64,000 bases of DNA. Origin: a phage. This document shows, in pieces, positions 16,998 through 37,495 of the stretch (its first letter is position 1; each line of letters opens with the position of its first letter). The notes under the pieces are model-generated. The model searched no databases. It saw only the letters and a program-made list of their open reading frames with translations, and was not told the DNA's origin. The DNA lies in sequence record PZ445487.1; one strand, 5' to 3'. Position numbers and translations under genes: made by a program.

Positions 16998-17074
16998 AGT
17001 ATAGAATTCCTGTTCAGATCAAAGAAGAACACATTATTGGGTAAGGTTATGATACTGGCGGGTGGTTCAATAGA

Positions 17075-17834: not shown

Positions 17835-18273
17835 TTGTTTCTCCTTTTGCTGCATACGACAGAGCTTTTACGATCATAACAGCCAAACCGATAGGATCGT
17901 ATGCATTGTCGAATTCTTGTTCTATGTTCTGACGAATTTCATCAGAAGATTGTACTTCAGAGCAGTTCTTACTCTGTCTGCGTTGCTCTTGCTCGACTAG
18001 ATCTTTGAACAGAAGGTCTTTGAAAGAATACTCATCGAAGTTTTCAAGATACCGTTGGATGCTTGGTTGTTTTACATCCATCGTTTGACGCAAATTGCTA
18101 ATAGTTGAACTTGCCTGTTCGCGGTGTTTGTTCATAACAGCAAAGTTAACGGGCTTGCCCCAAGCATTCATCACTGGATTAGAGCATACTTGGCCAAAGA
18201 GATCTTGGAAGGCATCATCCATGTGGATCAACGCAGTGGCCAATTCCTCATAAGTCGGTTTTTGAGTAGTCAT
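17827..18273 (-). CDS. hypothetical protein (148 aa)
   Basis: ORF track; same-strand packing. Confidence 0.5.
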   Translation of the reverse strand: MTTQKPTYEELATALIHMDDAFQDLFGQVCSNPVMNAWGKPVNFAVMNKHREQASSTISNLRQTMDVKQPSIQRYLENFDEYSFKDLLFKDLVEQEQRRQSKNCSEVQSSDEIRQNIEQEFDNAYDPIGLAVMIVKALSYAAKGETNV

Positions 18274-18635
18274 TTTCGTTTACTCCGATTTTTATATTTC
18301 TTAGCCTGACGTTTATGTTGGGCGGCTCCATATAGGCGCGGCGGCTTTTGATAACGTTGTGACGCAATTATGTCTCTGTCATCGGCTTCACAATACGAAA
18401 TATCTGCCTTCCGTAACTGAGCCACCGCTTGAGATACCAAGGTTTTGCGTTCACTTTCTACCAGATCATCACAAATTATCATGCGTTCACCTGGTTCACA
18501 ACAACGTTTAGGAATATCGTCTACACTGATACATTCTACTTCAACACCTTTCAACTTTTCTTGAAGGATAATGGCCATAGTCCGAGCGCCGATTCCTCCT
18601 CCAATAATCGCTATCTTTCTTGTCTTGTCTGTCAT
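18270..18635 (-). CDS. hypothetical protein with N-terminal Rossmann-like GxGxxG motif
   Basis: KIAIIGGGIGARTMA dinucleotide-binding-like motif; start ambiguous (TTG 18665, ATG 18647 or 18635). Confidence 0.4.
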   Translation of the reverse strand: MTDKTRKIAIIGGGIGARTMAIILQEKLKGVEVECISVDDIPKRCCEPGERMIICDDLVESERKTLVSQAVAQLRKADISYCEADDRDIIASQRYQKPPRLYGAAQHKRQAKKYKNRSKRK

Positions 18636-18650
18636 GTTCTTGCCCATGAA

Positions 18651-18695
18651 AAGGGGATAGAGCAATAATACCCTATCCCCATTTATTGAAGAACT
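18651..18695 (-). promoter_or_regulatory. conserved intergenic hairpin element (ggggatag / ctatcccc, loop with TATTAT) preceded on the sense strand by TTCAATAAA
   Basis: One of three similar elements upstream of minus-strand genes (also 21637..21680 and 26262..26300). Confidence 0.35.
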
Positions 18696-18696
18696 A

Positions 18697-19119
18697 TTAG
18701 TCTTCCGAACCTACAACCCCACCACGCAGATCCTGTGCTGGCTTACCATCAGGTGCCATGACATAGATGGTATTGATAGTCTCAAACCAAGACAATAAAT
18801 CAACTCCTTCGGTGTATGGCGTTACCGGAACAGAAGTTTTGATTTCTTTCTGTTCATCCTTCAAATCCGGATGACTTCCCGATAGGGTTAACCAAGCGAA
18901 TCTTCCATTGGGATAAATAATGCCTTCTTTGAACATTACAATCTTTTTGCGAGGATTATTGGCTTCACCCAGGCACACCACCAGATGATGGATCATTTCG
19001 GGGCGCGTCAACAACGTGTCATCTTTGATAATGCCCTGCTTGACAGCAGAGATTACCACTTCATCCAGCAACGCCTGTTGCTGTTCCAGCGTCAGAGATT
19101 CGGTTAGTTTCACGCTCAT
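18697..19119 (-). CDS. hypothetical protein (140 aa)
   Basis: Start moved to ATG 19119, just after the stop of the upstream gene. Confidence 0.5.
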   Translation of the reverse strand: MSVKLTESLTLEQQQALLDEVVISAVKQGIIKDDTLLTRPEMIHHLVVCLGEANNPRKKIVMFKEGIIYPNGRFAWLTLSGSHPDLKDEQKEIKTSVPVTPYTEGVDLLSWFETINTIYVMAPDGKPAQDLRGGVVGSED

Positions 19120-19123
19120 AAGA

Positions 19124-19693
19124 TCAGCCTTTGAAGTTAATCGGAGTCTGGACACCAGAGTCAAATGCGGCCTGGGTGCGGGTGTCACTCACCACCTGAC
19201 ATGTCTTGTCAAGATCGATACGCGGATATCCAAAGATTCCTGCTATCAGAGAACCAGGGAACTGGCCAAGTTTAGTTTCATAGATCGCACATGCGTCCAA
19301 TTTTTTAGTTTGGCTAATGCGGAATTCATCCCGACCTGAGCTGATAACAACCTGAATCTCTTTGTACAAAGATGAATCAAACTGAATATTCTGTTCCTGA
19401 ATCCATTGCATTACTGCTTTAGAACCGTCTGCGCCATAACGGCCTTGGAAAGTATCTTTGATCACTTCCTTCAAACCGTTTTTGTACATGTCAGGAATCT
19501 GCGCCGTCTCCTGAACTTTGAGCGTGTAGTTGCTCAGGTGGTTTTCAGAATCTTTGTTGAACTTTTTGACCTGTTGTTCAATGCGGTTGAAGTCATTGAA
19601 ATAGCTAACCACACTGCCAATCCCAATTACAGCAAATGCTAGAATCGCCAACCCAACAATCCAACCAATTGAAATACCTTTACGTTGTGACAT
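19124..19693 (-). CDS. membrane-anchored protein (189 aa, N-terminal TM helix)
   Basis: N-terminal ISIGWIVGLAILAFAVIGIGSVV hydrophobic helix; ORF track. Confidence 0.55.
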   Translation of the reverse strand: MSQRKGISIGWIVGLAILAFAVIGIGSVVSYFNDFNRIEQQVKKFNKDSENHLSNYTLKVQETAQIPDMYKNGLKEVIKDTFQGRYGADGSKAVMQWIQEQNIQFDSSLYKEIQVVISSGRDEFRISQTKKLDACAIYETKLGQFPGSLIAGIFGYPRIDLDKTCQVVSDTRTQAAFDSGVQTPINFKG

Positions 19694-19708
19694 CTTTACT
19701 TCCTCTTG

Positions 19709-20818
19709 TTAAAACAAACGTTTATAAGTTCGACCATTGTACTGCATGCGGCCTAATATGAAAACTGCGGTAAAAGGGATACATCCAAACAGCACGACGA
19801 TAATCACTTCCCAAGTTTTAAGATCTCGCCATTTCAGATATTCCATTTCCTTCATCTCAACTCGGTTGTATCCCTTACTGATATTGACCGCAACTTCTTG
19901 GAACACGGATATGCCCATTGGTTTCCCAGTCAATGAAAGTCCGTTACGAGAATGGAGTTCCATGTTGTTCATGCCGTCGGCAAATGACGTAGACTTACCC
20001 CAATTAATTTTCATATCCTTTGAAATATCGGTGACTACAATAACATCGTTCTTTTTACCGCCAGACCATGCATATAGAAGTCCCTGAAAATATTCAACAG
20101 GCTGGCCAGAAGTCACAACCCAAACGATATTAACCTGACGTGAAGCACCTAATGTTTTCAGAGTATTGTTCAGATAATCATTCCAGTAATCAACAGGAAT
20201 GTCCATCCCTGACATATTCAGAACACGAGTTACTCGGTAATAATCATACACCCTCGGATATGAAGGGATATGCTCTTTGAACTTCTCGGCGAATTTCTGG
20301 TCAGATTTAGAGAATAATGAATCTTTGTTGCCCAGCACATAATTCATATATGAATGTTCACGTGCCGCAGGTTCCCCGATTTTAACTTGTGCCCAACGCG
20401 GAGGCTCTGTAGTACCCTGACGATCAATACGGTCAATGCTCAGATCACCGACGGTTGTTAATACGTCCCAATCAACGTCATAAGAGTGCTCATAGCATGT
20501 GCTGCAATGACGCGTTTGTGTACAAGATCGGTTATTTCCTGAACCTGTACAAGATGTTGTGTAATAACACATACATTCATAAGAATGTTCACAACCCACC
20601 TTATTCCGTTGCTTATCAGTTACATATCCATTCAGGATTTCCACGTCCCCAGAACTACCAAGGGAGAAAGCAGCATATAATCCCGACTGGATAAGGCAAG
20701 ACAATACGATAACAATGGCCGTGGCGATCAAAGTCTCCTTTGGCTCATGAGTCTTGCGGTGATATATCACAAACAAGATGGCCAAAATTACAGGAACCAC
20801 AAACAGAAGGTAAATCAT
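19709..20818 (-). CDS. membrane protein with N- and C-terminal TM helices and Cys-rich central domain (369 aa)
   Basis: N-terminal LLFVVPVILAILFVIY and C-terminal VIIVVLFGCIPFTAVFILG hydrophobic segments; central region with at least 10 Cys. Confidence 0.55.
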   Translation of the reverse strand: MIYLLFVVPVILAILFVIYHRKTHEPKETLIATAIVIVLSCLIQSGLYAAFSLGSSGDVEILNGYVTDKQRNKVGCEHSYECMCYYTTSCTGSGNNRSCTQTRHCSTCYEHSYDVDWDVLTTVGDLSIDRIDRQGTTEPPRWAQVKIGEPAAREHSYMNYVLGNKDSLFSKSDQKFAEKFKEHIPSYPRVYDYYRVTRVLNMSGMDIPVDYWNDYLNNTLKTLGASRQVNIVWVVTSGQPVEYFQGLLYAWSGGKKNDVIVVTDISKDMKINWGKSTSFADGMNNMELHSRNGLSLTGKPMGISVFQEVAVNISKGYNRVEMKEMEYLKWRDLKTWEVIIVVLFGCIPFTAVFILGRMQYNGRTYKRLF

Positions 20819-21201
20819 AACACACCATCCACGAGTTGTTCCTTCGTCATACCAAGAAGTTGATTTTTATGCTCAGATTTAGCCCCATTTTTCAACAACA
20901 GATCCCAACGTTCTTCATGATACTGTGGAGTCATTGCATCGTCAAAAGAAACATGGTGGAGATGCATAATTGTTGCAACGGTATGAAGAACGATTGCTGT
21001 TTCTCTTTTTAAAGCACGTGTATCCGTGATATGGTCTTCATATTCGATTCCCATCAAATCGAGTTCTTTTCGGATATATGCTATAGACAAATCACCTTCA
21101 GAATGCAATTTAACAATAGTCGCTTTCTTAGGATGTAACACGCCGTCTGTTTCTTTCATGAACAGATCGTACAGGTACTGTTTGTATTCGGACTGTGTCA
21201 T
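20815..21201 (-). CDS. hypothetical protein (128 aa)
   Basis: ORF track; 4-nt overlaps with neighbours. Confidence 0.5.
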   Translation of the reverse strand: MTQSEYKQYLYDLFMKETDGVLHPKKATIVKLHSEGDLSIAYIRKELDLMGIEYEDHITDTRALKRETAIVLHTVATIMHLHHVSFDDAMTPQYHEERWDLLLKNGAKSEHKNQLLGMTKEQLVDGVL

Positions 21202-21410
21202 TTAGATTCTCCCATGACGATAACAGGAGCGCCATTACGGAAACAACTATATTCTGCAGGAAGACCTTCGCGAACCTTCTGGGCGAACGCTTCAGAAACA
21301 ACCAAACGACCAACCAGAGGTTCTTTTTGTTTTGGGGTGGACTCAAAGTAATCACCAAAAGTCGCTTCCATATCGAGCACAGACATGTCTTCAATTCGTT
21401 GCATTGCCAT
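21198..21410 (-). CDS. hypothetical protein (70 aa)
   Basis: ORF track; ATGA-type overlap. Confidence 0.4.
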   Translation of the reverse strand: MAMQRIEDMSVLDMEATFGDYFESTPKQKEPLVGRLVVSEAFAQKVREGLPAEYSCFRNGAPVIVMGESK

Positions 21411-21613: not shown

Positions 21614-21636
21614 AAAATCAATCCTTGCAAAAAGAA

Positions 21637-21680
21637 AGGGGAACGGGCTAATAATAACCCATTCCCCTTTATTGAAGAAC
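21637..21680 (-). promoter_or_regulatory. conserved intergenic hairpin element (aggggaa / ttcccct, loop with TATTATT) plus TTCAATAAA
   Basis: Paralogue of the element at 18651..18695; upstream of gene 21422..21613. Confidence 0.35.
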
Positions 21681-21695
21681 GCAATCGCAATCAGA

Positions 21696-21863
21696 TTACT
21701 TTTTCTTCAGCTCGTCCAGTTTGGCTTCGATTTGTTCCAGGATGTCTTTACCCTTCTGAACAATCACTTCACCGTCTTGCGCGTGTTTGCGAAAGACCAG
21801 AGCGCCAGCGATGAAGCCGACAACCACACCAGGAAGCGCATAAACCAACAGATCTTGTAACAT
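21696..21863 (-). CDS. small membrane protein (55 aa)
   Basis: Not in ORF track (<60 aa). ATG 21863 preceded by GAGGA at 8 nt; translation MLQDLLVYALPGVVVGFIAGALVF... has one TM helix. Confidence 0.4.
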   Translation of the reverse strand: MLQDLLVYALPGVVVGFIAGALVFRKHAQDGEVIVQKGKDILEQIEAKLDELKKK

Positions 21864-21898: not shown

Positions 21899-23140
21899 TC
21901 AGCGTTTCAAGAGTGTCATGAGGTTCACACTTTTAGAAGGATACACAGTACCATTTCGGCTCATGGTGTCCAATTTACCAACTGACAAACAAACCTCAGA
22001 CGGTTCCCAACGTGTACCCTGCTGTAAATGCCAGATATGTAGAGGAACACCCGTCTCAAAGAACACGGGCATCTTCCACTTCTGGACGCCTGGAACGTGC
22101 CCTGCAGGAGCCTTCTCACATAACAGGGTATCTGGTAGCCAGAGTGAACGGGCTTCCCAGAGAGGTGCACAGGAGTATTCAGGCCAAATACGTTCCATAT
22201 AATCGATCTCGTCCCATGTACGCTCGGCGTCCCACCCGATGTAACGGGTATTCTTCAGTCGGAAGAATTTCTTCAACCAACAAGCACCGGAGGTCTCAAA
22301 GTTCAGACGATTGATAAACGTGATGTGGCCAAACTCTTCAACGCATTCCTGAAACGCTTTCTCAAGGTCGGTTTCGAGTATATCACATTCTTCGTCTGTA
22401 ATAGGACAACCGTTAATCTTTTTCTTCCCGTGCTTGGTCACCCAATCATCACGGTTGGATAAGAATGCCGCGCCGTTACGATTGGATTCGCTACCATCAC
22501 GGTCACGCAACATGAAACCAGGGACGTCTATATCCCATATGTTACCGAAGACCATGTTCAGGGCTTCCAGGAAGTTCCATGCGCTCAGGCGACCGAAGTA
22601 TTTCCATGACATCGCCGTATTCCACAGTTCGGTGAATTGGTCTTCCTTGGTAGTGCATTCCAACATCCAACGAAAAGAATCCATTTGGGTTTTACCACCC
22701 AACCAATCGATATAGGACTGAACGCACGGAATCATCTTCGACTTACGATAACGACAATCTGTATCGAAGCGCATACGATCAAAGTTCAGGTTATACCAAT
22801 CAGAAAATCGCTGAAACTCTTTCGGAGATTGTGGGGGTACAGGAAATTCACTGTAAATTGTCCATGGTCCAATCCCATTATAGCAACAACCCCACAAAAA
22901 GGCCATCCAAATCTTGCGCTCGATCTTCTCGAGCTGTGTGATGCCTTCTGTAACCTCGATGGCATAATCCATCAGACGGACTTGCTGGTTATGCTCTTCA
23001 GTGTAGGATAGCGCCTCCACCCATGCCTTGAGCAGGTACATGCGATTTTCTGGCTTACGATAATCTACTGCCAGATCAATCGGGTATTTCCATTTTTCAG
23101 GGGCTTTATATCCCTGCGGCATTTTAGAAATGTGTATCAT
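21899..23140 (-). CDS. hypothetical protein (413 aa), Trp/Cys-rich
   Basis: Long ORF on the coding strand; no motif recognised. Confidence 0.55.
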   Translation of the reverse strand: MIHISKMPQGYKAPEKWKYPIDLAVDYRKPENRMYLLKAWVEALSYTEEHNQQVRLMDYAIEVTEGITQLEKIERKIWMAFLWGCCYNGIGPWTIYSEFPVPPQSPKEFQRFSDWYNLNFDRMRFDTDCRYRKSKMIPCVQSYIDWLGGKTQMDSFRWMLECTTKEDQFTELWNTAMSWKYFGRLSAWNFLEALNMVFGNIWDIDVPGFMLRDRDGSESNRNGAAFLSNRDDWVTKHGKKKINGCPITDEECDILETDLEKAFQECVEEFGHITFINRLNFETSGACWLKKFFRLKNTRYIGWDAERTWDEIDYMERIWPEYSCAPLWEARSLWLPDTLLCEKAPAGHVPGVQKWKMPVFFETGVPLHIWHLQQGTRWEPSEVCLSVGKLDTMSRNGTVYPSKSVNLMTLLKR

Positions 23141-36139: not shown

Positions 36140-36228
36140 TGGCGGAAGGTGAAGGATTCGAACCTTCGGGGGCTAAAAGCCCCACTCGATTAGCAGTCGA
36201 GTCCCTTAAACCTCTCGGGCAACCTTCC
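36140..36228 (-). tRNA. tRNA-Ser (anticodon GCU), class II, encoded CCA
   Basis: Hand-folded: acceptor GGAAGGT/ACCTTCC, anticodon arm CTCGA-CTGCTAA-TCGAG, long variable arm TGGGGC-TTTTA-GCCCCC, T-arm GAAGG-TTCGAAT-CCTTC, discriminator G, CCA. Confidence 0.85.
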
Positions 36229-36232
36229 AATT

Positions 36233-36316
36233 TGGAGCGGGAGAACAGGATTCGAACCTGTCCAGTGATCGTCGCCGATGATCAGTCGGCTACTGGCCAA
36301 CCCCTATGGCTCCCGC
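36233..36316 (-). tRNA. tRNA-Ile-like (anticodon GAU), atypical (12-nt variable region, one-nt bulge before acceptor 3' strand)
   Basis: Acceptor GCGGGAG/CTCCCGC (7 bp), anticodon arm GCCGA-CTGATCA-TCGGC (perfect), T-arm ACAGG-TTCGAAT-CCTGT, CCA encoded; D-stem has one A.A mismatch. Confidence 0.45.
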
Positions 36317-36319
36317 GAA

Positions 36320-36930
36320 ATTAGGACGGGCTTCACACCCGATTGTGCATTTGATCTGCCGTAGCCCAACTCCCCGCGCTTATCAGCGCCGATTGGTTAA
36401 CTGGCACCAGTGCCTTCTGGTTCGATCTCCTGGAACTTTACAGGCTTCGCGCCCGACCATTTCTGGAAGTTGGGGCATCGTTTTCGATGTGGAGTCACCC
36501 CATTTTATACACAGCTGGCTGCAACGCTTACTGTGTTTGGTCTACCACCACGTGCTGGGCCACGCTTGAGGACATCGGCCATCCTTCCTCAGCTAATCCA
36601 CGCAGTGATAGATTTGTATCAGAGTGTCCGGTGTAGCTTTCCGTGAGGTGCGCACTACTGTAGCCTCTACACTCTGAATTTGGTGGGCGTTACTTTCGTC
36701 GGGTTCAGATTCCGTTCGGCTATTGGACGTCGCTCGAGAGAACTTGTCGTTCGCGTACTTCGTGCTTACTTGCTTTCGTTTCACACCCATTGTTTGTCGT
36801 CGGGCGGGGGATTCAAACCCCAATCTTTAGTTTGCGTTTCTTCAAAGCTATCATATGTTCACTTTGAATACTAGACTCCCCTGGACATCAAAACAGGATC
36901 TCTATTCCATCCTGCAAGACCCGACATAAT
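36320..36930 (-). other. GC-rich ORF-poor spacer between tRNA genes with a T-arm-like motif (ggggattcaaacccc at 36806..36820)
   Basis: No convincing ORF; only a low-complexity 76-aa frame; candidate stable RNA. Confidence 0.3.
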
Positions 36931-36932
36931 CC

Positions 36933-37008
36933 TGGCGACGACGGCAGGACTTGAACCTGCGACATACGATTTAACAGACCGCCGTTCTACCGACTGAACT
37001 ACATCGTC
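36933..37008 (-). tRNA. tRNA-Asn (anticodon GUU), encoded CCA
   Basis: Hand-folded: acceptor GACGATG/CGTCGTC, D-arm GTTC-AGTCGGTA-GAAC, anticodon arm GCGGT-CTGTTAA-ATCGT, T-arm GCAGG-TTCAAGT-CCTGC, discriminator G, CCA. Confidence 0.8.
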
Positions 37009-37182
37009 TCTATTCTTACTTTCGTAAACATTCTTTATTCTGCATGAAGACCCAGGGCAGGATCATAACGATCGTAAGTTTTTGGATGAGACCCGTTCTT
37101 GATGCTCACCATCCGACCTTCCCAACTAGCGCGAATTCTGTTGGAAATTACCACCCAAATATTCTTCATAATATAGAACCCT

Positions 37183-37383
37183 TCAACTATGTTTATTCGC
37201 TTCGATCGCCCCTAATTGGGCGTCCGCGTCAGCTTTGGTGTCATGTGTCCCAAGAACTTTAGTCTTGGTGTGGTCAAGGACAACCCACTTATCGCCTCGC
37301 TTTTCAACAAACTCAACAATCTCTTTGTTGTCAGTAGCGAGACCATCCCACTCAGTAAGAAACTCACCGAACGTTTTCATCAT
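37183..37383 (-). CDS. small hypothetical protein (about 66 aa) inside the tRNA island
   Basis: ATG 37383/37380 after GGTGAG; CTAAATA-like motif (plus-strand tatttag at 37412..37418) upstream. Confidence 0.3.
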   Translation of the reverse strand: MMKTFGEFLTEWDGLATDNKEIVEFVEKRGDKWVVLDHTKTKVLGTHDTKADADAQLGAIEANKHS

Positions 37384-37420
37384 ACTCACCAATTGTTTAT
37401 TGAACAACTGGTTTATTTAG

Positions 37421-37495
37421 TGGTGACCCTGGCTGGACTTGAACCAGCGACCAATCCCTTATGAGGGGGCTGCTCTACCACTGAGCTACAGGACC
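37421..37495 (-). tRNA. tRNA-Met or tRNA-Ile2 (anticodon CAU), encoded CCA
   Basis: Hand-folded: acceptor GGTCCTG/CAGGGTC (two G.U), D-arm GCTC-AGTGGTA-GAGC, anticodon loop CTCATAA (one C.A mismatch in stem), T-arm GCTGG-TTCAAGT-CCAGC. Confidence 0.7.

Follow-up and report, generated by a model that had tools for sequence, protein, structure and literature searches.

The 64,000-nucleotide stretch of phage DNA analysed in this study (sequence record PZ445487.1, hereafter the window) carries on its minus strand two adjacent genes for membrane proteins, which are gp198 and gp199 of Escherichia phage CBA120 (Kuttervirus, Ackermannviridae). The pair is a very divergent, phage-specific version of a known, poorly understood bacterial module in which a LemA protein is encoded beside a TPM-domain protein. 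gp199 is, by profile comparison, a divergent LemA with a predicted periplasmic helical domain, and gp198 carries, as judged from its structural model and profile alignments, a TPM-fold domain. The identity and predicted topology of the two proteins as a periplasm-facing LemA–TPM pair are held with high confidence. Taken as a whole, the results were best explained by a phage LemA–TPM cassette that maintains or re-tunes the inner membrane, an explanation in which our confidence is moderate.

Positions 18600–21300 of the window were 100% identical in DNA sequence to CBA120, and the minus-strand open reading frames (ORFs) at 19709–20818 (369 amino acids, aa) and 19124–19693 (189 aa) corresponded, at 100% DNA identity, to RefSeq coding sequences of that phage. 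An initial annotation had placed an adjacent pair of membrane proteins of these lengths at 19124–20818, and both the coordinates and the lengths were correct. The two ORFs are real genes because each has hundreds of conserved homologues. In RefSeq, gp198 is named "hypothetical protein" and gp199 "virion structural protein", and the corresponding PHROG families are 2087 (unknown function) and 1383 ("virion structural protein"). In the public records examined, gp198 was always "hypothetical" and gp199 was mostly "virion structural protein"; the latter label is probably wrong.

Relationship of gp199 to LemA

The hydropathy profile of gp199 contained one N-terminal transmembrane (TM) segment, and an agreeing helix was found in the AlphaFold2 (AF2) model, which was all helical. 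The protein had been described initially as N-terminally anchored, in accordance with this result. Its length of 189 aa fits the size and layout of LemA (approximately 180–200 aa). When a profile of 44 gp199 homologues was compared with the PDB, the top match was the LemA structure 2ETD (E 0.013), which was aligned in two colinear stretches. LemA was also the commonest weak Pfam match of the gp199 relatives (5 of 44, best E 0.0016), with all scores below the threshold. At the family level, hhalign matched the gp199 family to seven annotated bacterial LemA proteins with a probability of 96.7% (E 3.9e-10) over 150 columns, covering the TM segment and the whole domain. The seven proteins were taken from plasmid and chromid records, since metagenome LemA fragments were unusable owing to frameshifted long-read assemblies.

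As a control of specificity, a hidden Markov model (HMM) was built from the seven bacterial LemA proteins and run on 80 phage loci, in which the ORFs of at least 40 aa numbered 5,949. There were 39 matches at E 0.01 or better, and every one of them was the ORF directly 3' of the TPM-like gene (39 of the 79 phage LemA-like ORFs). The name LemA is already used in one GenBank record and in UniRef entries for Taipeivirus. Moreover, the N terminus of the LemA protein of Thiodictyon resembles a lipoprotein signal (LSAC), which fits a putative extracytoplasmic location of the LemA domain.

The TPM-fold domain of gp198

The TPM family (PF04536) includes TLP18.3, Psb32 and MOLO-1. The AF2 model of gp198 (predicted local distance difference test score, pLDDT, 90; predicted template modelling score, pTM, 0.79) contained the alpha/beta fold of this family, and Foldseek searches with the model returned 9h70 (prob 0.99) and 2kw7 (prob 0.96). 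The domain was predicted to be extracytoplasmic with a TM helix on its C-terminal side, a layout expected of the TPM family. TPM_phosphatase was the commonest weak Pfam match of the gp198 relatives (13 of 58, best E 1.8e-4, sub-threshold). The hhalign probability between the gp198 family and the bacterial TPM partners was 51%, and it rose to 76.6% (E 2.1e-5, 161 columns) when YgcG of E. coli was added to give five proteins. In this alignment, the phage segment WSGGKKNDVIVV was paired with WRLGDAKRNDGILIVV of YgcG, and the phage motif W251-x-G253-G-K-K-N257-D258-V-I was aligned with the bacterial pattern W-x-x-G-x-x-K-x-N-D/G-G-hydrophobic. The motif positions W251, G253, K255, K256, N257 and D258 were invariant or near-invariant columns of the gp198 family. 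A plain HMM from the five bacterial TPM proteins matched no phage member among the ORFs of the 80 phage loci. A search for LemA- or TPM-like families had been suggested by the initial annotation, and the suggestion proved apt for both proteins.

Membrane topology and cysteines

Three TM segments were found in gp198 by hydropathy, two at the N terminus (residues 1–23 and 28–54) and one at the C terminus (333–359), and at least three TM-like segments were obtained in none of 2,000 shuffles of the sequence. The helices in the AF2 models of gp198 and gp199 coincided with the hydropathy segments. Hence, TM helices were predicted in both proteins, and those of the larger one lie at both termini, as had been claimed. 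Along gp198 the model gave the order TM1, TM2, a beta-rich region at about 57–158, an alpha/beta region at about 190–320, two short helices and TM3. The flank charges of the TM helices of the pair obeyed the positive-inside rule. In family-wide charge counts, the short, positive TM1–TM2 loop and the C-terminal tail of gp198 were predicted to be cytoplasmic with the large domain outside, and gp199 to be oriented N-in, C-out. The predicted periplasmic share of gp198 would amount to about 280 residues, with the beta domain followed by the TPM-fold domain.

gp198 has nine cysteines, seven of them within residues 76–108 and two in TM helices (C41 and C346). The clustering of cysteines between the TM helices is real, but the count of at least 10 in the initial annotation was too high. 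Seven cysteines within 33 residues occurred in 1 of 20,000 shuffles of gp198. Of 258 gp198 homologues, 228 had both C84 and C105, 29 had neither and one had a single member of the pair; on a neighbour-joining tree, this pattern required no fewer than 15 independent concerted changes. C90 and C99 were mostly gained or lost jointly, together with the intervening loop, and C76 and C82 were near-invariant. From this covariation we infer disulfides C84–C105 and C90–C99, and C76 and C82 are probably bonded as well. H78, C108 and H111 were all retained in 244 sequences; because these residues were often lost together, a possible metal site is suggested. The positive-inside flank charges and the concerted gain and loss of Cys pairs support the prediction that the Cys-rich domain is extracytoplasmic, in an oxidising location, as had been proposed. 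In gp199, C135 and C165 were both present in 29 homologues and both absent in 15, and no homologue was mixed.

The beta domain of gp198 also contained three H-S-Y motifs, at residues 78–80, 111–113 and 155–157 (E-H-S-Y in the CBA120 protein). The domain was encountered solely in phage and phage-like sequences, and Foldseek gave no significant structural match for it. Its hairpins (residues 57–128, window positions 20435–20650) were matched at prob 0.3 or less to the collar of the FliF MS ring and to the pore hairpins of anthrax PA and CDTb; these model-based matches may hint at a ring-forming oligomer or may be noise.

Pairing and distribution of the two genes

The homologues of each protein number in the hundreds and occur in about 490–500 phage records. 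These include Ackermannviridae, T5-like phages of Vibrio, Providencia, Pectobacterium and Aeromonas, Vibrio phage ICP1, T4-like phages of Aeromonas and Cronobacter, Erwinia phages, RaK2/GAP32-type and other jumbo phages, and phages of Acinetobacter, Sinorhizobium, Burkholderia and Xanthomonas. The named hosts that were recognised were Gram-negative throughout. An exhaustive search with the gp198 profile gave 2,136 representatives at 50% identity, 755 of them with E values no higher than 1e-30; of the 150 best matches, nearly all were 335–411 aa long and covered most of the profile. The mean column identity of the cassette families was 41–45%, with many invariant residues.

In 79 of 80 IMG/VR loci, the LemA-like gene was located on the same strand directly 3' of the TPM-like gene, with most gaps shorter than 100 nt; in the exceptional locus, the contig stops 87 nt past the TPM-like gene. 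There was no conserved third gene: after dereplication at 60% identity, which left 39 loci, each neighbouring family was present in three of them at most. Hence, the unit is a two-gene cassette. In bacterial genome and metagenome-assembled genome (MAG) collections, 30 loci were found, of which 23 had the same arrangement, one was reversed, four had a solo TPM-like gene and two were cut by contig ends. Many of the 30 are candidate-phyla bins and are suspected to be mis-binned phage contigs.

Six genome-contig loci were exceptional (L100, L102, L107, L116, L119 and L120), and these could be bacterial relatives or evolutionary intermediates. The order in L100 was reversed, with the LemA-like gene before the TPM-like gene, and L102 had a canonical LemA gene (E 5e-72) 2 kb downstream of the phage-type LemA-like gene. 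The solo TPM-like genes were more divergent and occurred in one record labelled Rickettsia typhi and in Kofleriaceae, Deltaproteobacteria and Enterobacteriaceae MAGs. In the isolate genome of Achromobacter anxifer LMG 26857 (215740–228615 of a 486,889-bp contig, L097), the cassette was found beside a UvsX-like recombinase and a RecE-like exonuclease. With these neighbours the context is phage-like, which points to either a large region of phage origin or the co-assembly of a jumbo phage. The pair is present in Variovorax sp. WDL1 (L105) too.

The distribution bears on the idea that the pair provides superinfection exclusion or protection from lysis from without, by blocking the DNA entry of secondary phages or their attack on the cell wall in the manner of T4 Imm and Sp. 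In T4, exclusion and lysis inhibition involve Imm, Sp and RI, small inner-membrane proteins encoded by the phage and partly exposed to the periplasm. gp198 and gp199 are likewise predicted inner-membrane proteins with periplasmic domains in a large virulent phage, and the CBA120 pair is found among small non-structural genes and genes of nucleotide metabolism and replication, a setting expected of exclusion genes. Exclusion proteins are, however, usually narrow in distribution, fast-evolving and lineage-specific. The T4 proteins are lineage-restricted, whereas the cassette is broadly spread and strongly conserved over unrelated types of phage, among them myoviruses, siphoviruses of the T5 type and jumbo phages; its carriers (Ackermannviridae, the T5-like phages, ICP1, T4-like phages of Aeromonas and several groups of jumbo phages) differ greatly in their injection machinery. 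Exclusion therefore fits poorly. Moreover, no sequence, profile or fold relationship to T4 Imm, Sp or RI was detectable, nor did searches of Pfam, NCBIfam, PHROG or PADLOC link the pair by sequence or profile to a named exclusion family. The check for imm/sp-like families that had been suggested initially was thus negative, and no similarity to holins or antiholins was found either. CBA120 does respond to a high multiplicity of infection (PMC3184105). On balance, an exclusion function appears unlikely.

Control of lysis timing, in which the pair would be an antiholin-like or holin-regulating sensor behind the lysis-inhibition-like behaviour of CBA120, was considered less likely still. The T4 protein RI is also membrane-tethered and periplasmic, and the gene of the gp198 orthologue in phage ViI (Vi01_203) is named "host lysis protein"; that label has no stated basis, and the product field reads "conserved uncharacterised protein". 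Holins are typically shorter than 150 aa, consist mostly of TM helices and are encoded beside an endolysin. gp198 was rejected as a holin, with its 369 aa, a 280-residue soluble ectodomain and no conserved lysis-gene neighbour; no endolysin, holin or spanin gene was a conserved neighbour of the cassette. Holin Pfam families were matched weakly in 2 of 58 and 1 of 58 relatives (E 0.027 and 0.0073), and these matches were attributed to the TM segments. Furthermore, for many of the phage groups that bear the cassette, we know of no report of lysis inhibition. For CBA120 itself, lysis inhibition at high multiplicity was reported by Kutter et al., and its holin and antiholin were not identified there (PMC3184105).

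Comparison with bacterial LemA–TPM pairs and other systems

Bacterial pairs of LemA (PF04011) and TPM (PF04536, YgcG-type) genes consist of the same two families as the phage pair, adjacent and on the same strand. At the seven annotated bacterial LemA loci, a TPM gene was adjacent in three, a DUF2207 gene was adjacent in one and nearby in another, HtpX was found in one, and one had an unannotated gap. A membrane-anchored partner (TPM, DUF2207 or HtpX/M48) was thus adjacent or nearby in six of the seven, and one locus had two TPM genes. The order was LemA then TPM in Parabacteroides and Thiodictyon, and TPM then LemA, the phage order, in Bacteroides finegoldii. Bacterial LemA has an N-terminal TM anchor and about 190 aa, as has gp199, and bacterial TPM proteins have a C-terminal TM helix, as has gp198.

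The two TPM proteins differ in other respects. In gp198, two extra N-terminal TM helices replace the signal peptide of the bacterial partners, and the Cys/His-rich beta domain of about 100 residues was absent from the five bacterial partners examined. Conversely, the Gly-rich tail and the cytosolic zinc ribbon of the bacterial partners are missing in gp198. In the Bacteroidales partners (L006, 4028–4999; L011, 1921–2838), a zinc-ribbon-like CxxC...CxxC motif and a long Gly-rich tail were observed past the TM helix. A TPM domain and a Cys-rich element thus occur together in these proteins, as in gp198, although their Cys-rich element is on the opposite side of the membrane.

Other TPM-fold proteins were more distant. 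TLP18.3/Psb32 of the thylakoid lumen functions in photosystem II repair, and the DUF5130 protein is a subunit resolved in the mycobacterial respiratory supercomplex CIII2CIV2; both have host-cell functions, and we know of no LemA partner for either. Their sequence identity to gp198 was 7–16%, and they lack its Cys-rich beta domain. YdjH of B. subtilis is a membrane-anchored TPM protein of the PspA-YdjG-YdjH-YdjI operon, a membrane-integrity system in which its partner YdjG carries zinc ribbons (PMC11237479). gp198 recalls this association between a TPM domain and a Cys-rich module; however, the Cys-rich element of gp198 is predicted to be periplasmic and mostly disulfide-bonded, whereas the zinc ribbon of YdjG is cytosolic. 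The operon has no LemA, and its PspA and band-7 protein have no counterpart beside the phage pair. The phosphatase activity claimed for the TPM family is disputed (bioRxiv 10.1101/2025.01.14.632903).

The ygcG gene of E. coli K-12 (L093, 1558–2584) had no LemA gene immediately beside it and was preceded by yqcG, which encodes 46 aa and is annotated as a "cell envelope stress response protein", a contextual tie between a host TPM protein and envelope stress. YqcG was considered as a LemA remnant and rejected, as it has no resemblance to LemA.

Proposed role of the pair

The genes of gp198 and gp199 make up a stand-alone cassette of two genes, the phage equivalent of the bacterial LemA–TPM pair. 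gp198 is predicted to be inserted in the host inner membrane by its three TM helices and to expose to the periplasm a disulfide-stabilised, possibly metal-binding beta domain followed by the TPM-fold domain, and gp199 is predicted to be a type-II anchored, divergent LemA whose helical domain likewise points toward the periplasm. In the proposed mechanism, the two proteins would form a membrane-anchored periplasmic complex acting as a chaperone or scaffold for membrane protein complexes at the outer face of the inner membrane. Large lytic phages of Gram-negative hosts have a long latent period, over which the membrane would be kept functional or re-tuned. In published proposals, TPM domains are chaperone-like assembly factors of membrane-linked complexes, the cellular examples being TLP18.3/Psb32, the TPM-fold subunit of the mycobacterial respiratory supercomplex and YdjH (PMC11237479; bioRxiv 10.1101/2025.01.14.632903), and YdjH of B. 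subtilis connects TPM with PspA (PMC11237479). The role in inner-membrane maintenance is proposed on the basis of this suggested function and the PspA link. For the phage pair, the chaperone or scaffold mechanism is drawn by analogy and is possible but doubtful.

One elaboration of this maintenance role may be considered, which is improbable as a whole. In it, gp198 and gp199 would build a periplasmic oligomeric scaffold with a His/Cys metal centre (H78, C108 and H111) on the beta domain. The scaffold would bind host respiratory or transport complexes or sense envelope damage, and the membrane would thereby be kept energised against holin leakage, superinfecting phages or abortive-infection pore effectors. 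On this reading, the cassette would be the viral analogue of the membrane-stress machinery of Psp and TPM, and it would provide a first functional handle on bacterial LemA–TPM pairs.

Several points weigh against the assignment and the proposed role. The pair is too divergent to be recognised by Pfam or NCBIfam: gp199 itself had no Pfam match at E 1 or better and none in NCBIfam, and gp198 itself had no TPM match in Pfam, with no family reaching the Pfam or NCBIfam threshold. Direct searches of Pfam, NCBIfam, PADLOC and PDB sequences with both proteins gave noise-level matches only. Unlike bacterial LemA, gp199 lacks the canonical motifs: the signatures RRxDLIPNLVxTVKGYAxHE and YPDLKA are not retained in the phage family, whose consensus at the signature columns reads YTLKIQExAQVPxMYKxDLKEVI. 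The evidence for a disulfide between C135 and C165 of gp199 is weaker than that for gp198 because it comprises at least two evolutionary events only. Although gp198 and gp199 most probably act together, a physical complex is suggested by synteny only. In the literature searched, no experiments on the pair or any phage homologue were found, nor was any functional study of bacterial LemA–TPM pairs; hence, the likeness to the bacterial pair carries little mechanistic detail. Finally, a gp199 orthologue has been reported in particle preparations of phage ViI, as that work is relayed by later authors, and the proposed role must treat this as contamination.

That report bears directly on the alternative that gp199 truly belongs to the virion, for instance as a membrane-active protein introduced into the cell during infection. 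The label "virion structural protein" was traced to the ViI particle proteome (Pickard et al. 2010, as cited in PMC3184105), and it is also attached to homologues in Erwinia, Acinetobacter and Aeromonas phages, but most of the labels look propagated from this single proteome. The gp199 gene is not part of the structural module, and its partner is in every case a gene for a three-TM membrane protein. Tailed phage particles assemble in the cytoplasm, and a TM anchor with a predicted periplasmic, probably disulfide-bonded domain is hard to square with such assembly; membrane fragments, moreover, can co-purify with phage. A virion role was regarded as very improbable.

A counter-defence function was also weighed, in which the pair would shield the inner membrane against depolarising or perforating abortive-infection effectors or keep the holin from triggering too early. 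The cassette is typically found in large virulent phages, the position of ygcG behind yqcG in E. coli K-12 points toward envelope stress, and the TPM–PspA association in Firmicutes ties TPM to membrane-damage responses (PMC11237479). This support is purely contextual, and no similarity to known anti-defence proteins was found. Such a function has a low probability. The one weak PADLOC match, to LeoBC (E 1e-4), covered the TM and coiled-coil region and was discounted as a probable effect of composition.

The inner-membrane maintenance role remains the preferred explanation. Of the three functions that had been suggested initially, namely superinfection exclusion, lysis control and envelope remodelling, none was established; envelope remodelling is loosely compatible with membrane maintenance, and exclusion fits poorly, as described above.

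Genomic setting

The coordinates of the features are listed in Table 1. The pair is located in a run of tightly packed small minus-strand genes, upstream of which lie those for DNA polymerase and guanylate kinase. The stop codon of orf252 overlaps the start codon of gp198 (ATGA), the intergenic gap between gp198 and gp199 is 15 nt, and orf255 starts 4 nt past the gp199 stop codon. The two terminator-like hairpins may delimit a six-gene block, orf250–orf255, that holds the pair.

Table 1. Positions in the window of the gp198–gp199 cassette, its protein domains and its flanking signals.
Feature	Position	Strand	Basis
orf253/CBA120_gp198, 369 aa; predicted three-TM inner-membrane protein with periplasmic Cys-rich beta and TPM-fold domains	19709..20818	-	
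gp198 TM1, about residues 2–20, N terminus outside	20759..20815	-	Hydropathy, AF2 helix 2–20, charge distribution
gp198 TM2, about residues 26–54	20657..20743	-	Hydropathy, AF2, charge
gp198 predicted periplasmic beta-rich domain, about residues 57–158, long beta hairpins	20345..20650	-	AF2 strands
gp198 Cys/His cluster, residues 76–111	20486..20593	-	Covariation in 58 and 258 homologues
gp198 TPM-fold domain, about residues 190–320, W-x-G-G-K-K-N-D-V-I motif	19859..20251	-	
gp198 TM3, about residues 335–361, then short positive cytoplasmic tail	19736..19816	-	Hydropathy, AF2, charge
GAGGA ribosome-binding site, 7 nt 5' of the gp199 ATG	19701..19705	-	Direct sequence reading
orf254/CBA120_gp199, 189 aa; predicted bitopic (N-in, C-out) divergent LemA-family protein	19124..19693	-	
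gp199 N-terminal TM anchor, about residues 9–31	19601..19669	-	Hydropathy, AF2, charge
gp199 helical LemA-like domain, about residues 32–180	19154..19600	-	AF2 helices
Terminator-like hairpin, 16-bp stem and T run, upstream of orf250	21635..21670	-	Consensus scan only
Terminator-like hairpin, 12-bp stem and T run, just past orf255	18653..18680	-	Consensus scan only

Several other genes were observed in the window. About 1 kb upstream of the pair, beyond the strong hairpin, orf248 (CBA120_gp193, 21899–23140, minus strand), a "hypothetical protein" in RefSeq, matched Pfam PF18724 ADDT (amino acid:DNA transferase) with E 1.9e-57. In ViI-like phages, enzymes of the ADDT family contribute to the hypermodification of thymidine. 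The gene orf249 (21696–21863, minus strand; PHROG 3879, unknown function), which is flanked by the ADDT gene and the hairpin at 21670–21635, encodes 55 aa with one N-terminal TM helix and a highly charged C-terminal helix, a size compatible with a holin- or antiholin-type protein. Just past the downstream hairpin, orf256 (18270–18635, minus strand) matched Pfam DUF7231 over the whole protein (E 5e-64). A cluster of four tRNA genes (Ser-GCT, Ile-GAT, Asn-GTT and Met-CAT) was found at 36140–37495 on the minus strand. The end of the deposited linear CBA120 record (157304) maps to approximately position 16998; the window thus seems to cross the arbitrary ends of that record, as a circular permutation of it would.

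Implications

The LemA–TPM assignment corrects the annotation of gp198 and gp199, and it yields predictions, namely the periplasmic orientation, specific disulfides, the His/Cys site and a gp198–gp199 complex. The family comprises about 2,100 clusters at 50% identity and represents a widespread cassette in large virulent phages of Gram-negative bacteria. CBA120 and ICP1 are genetically tractable systems for a protein pair that is common in bacteria. If the role in inner-membrane maintenance is true, large phages would carry an envelope-homeostasis factor of their own.

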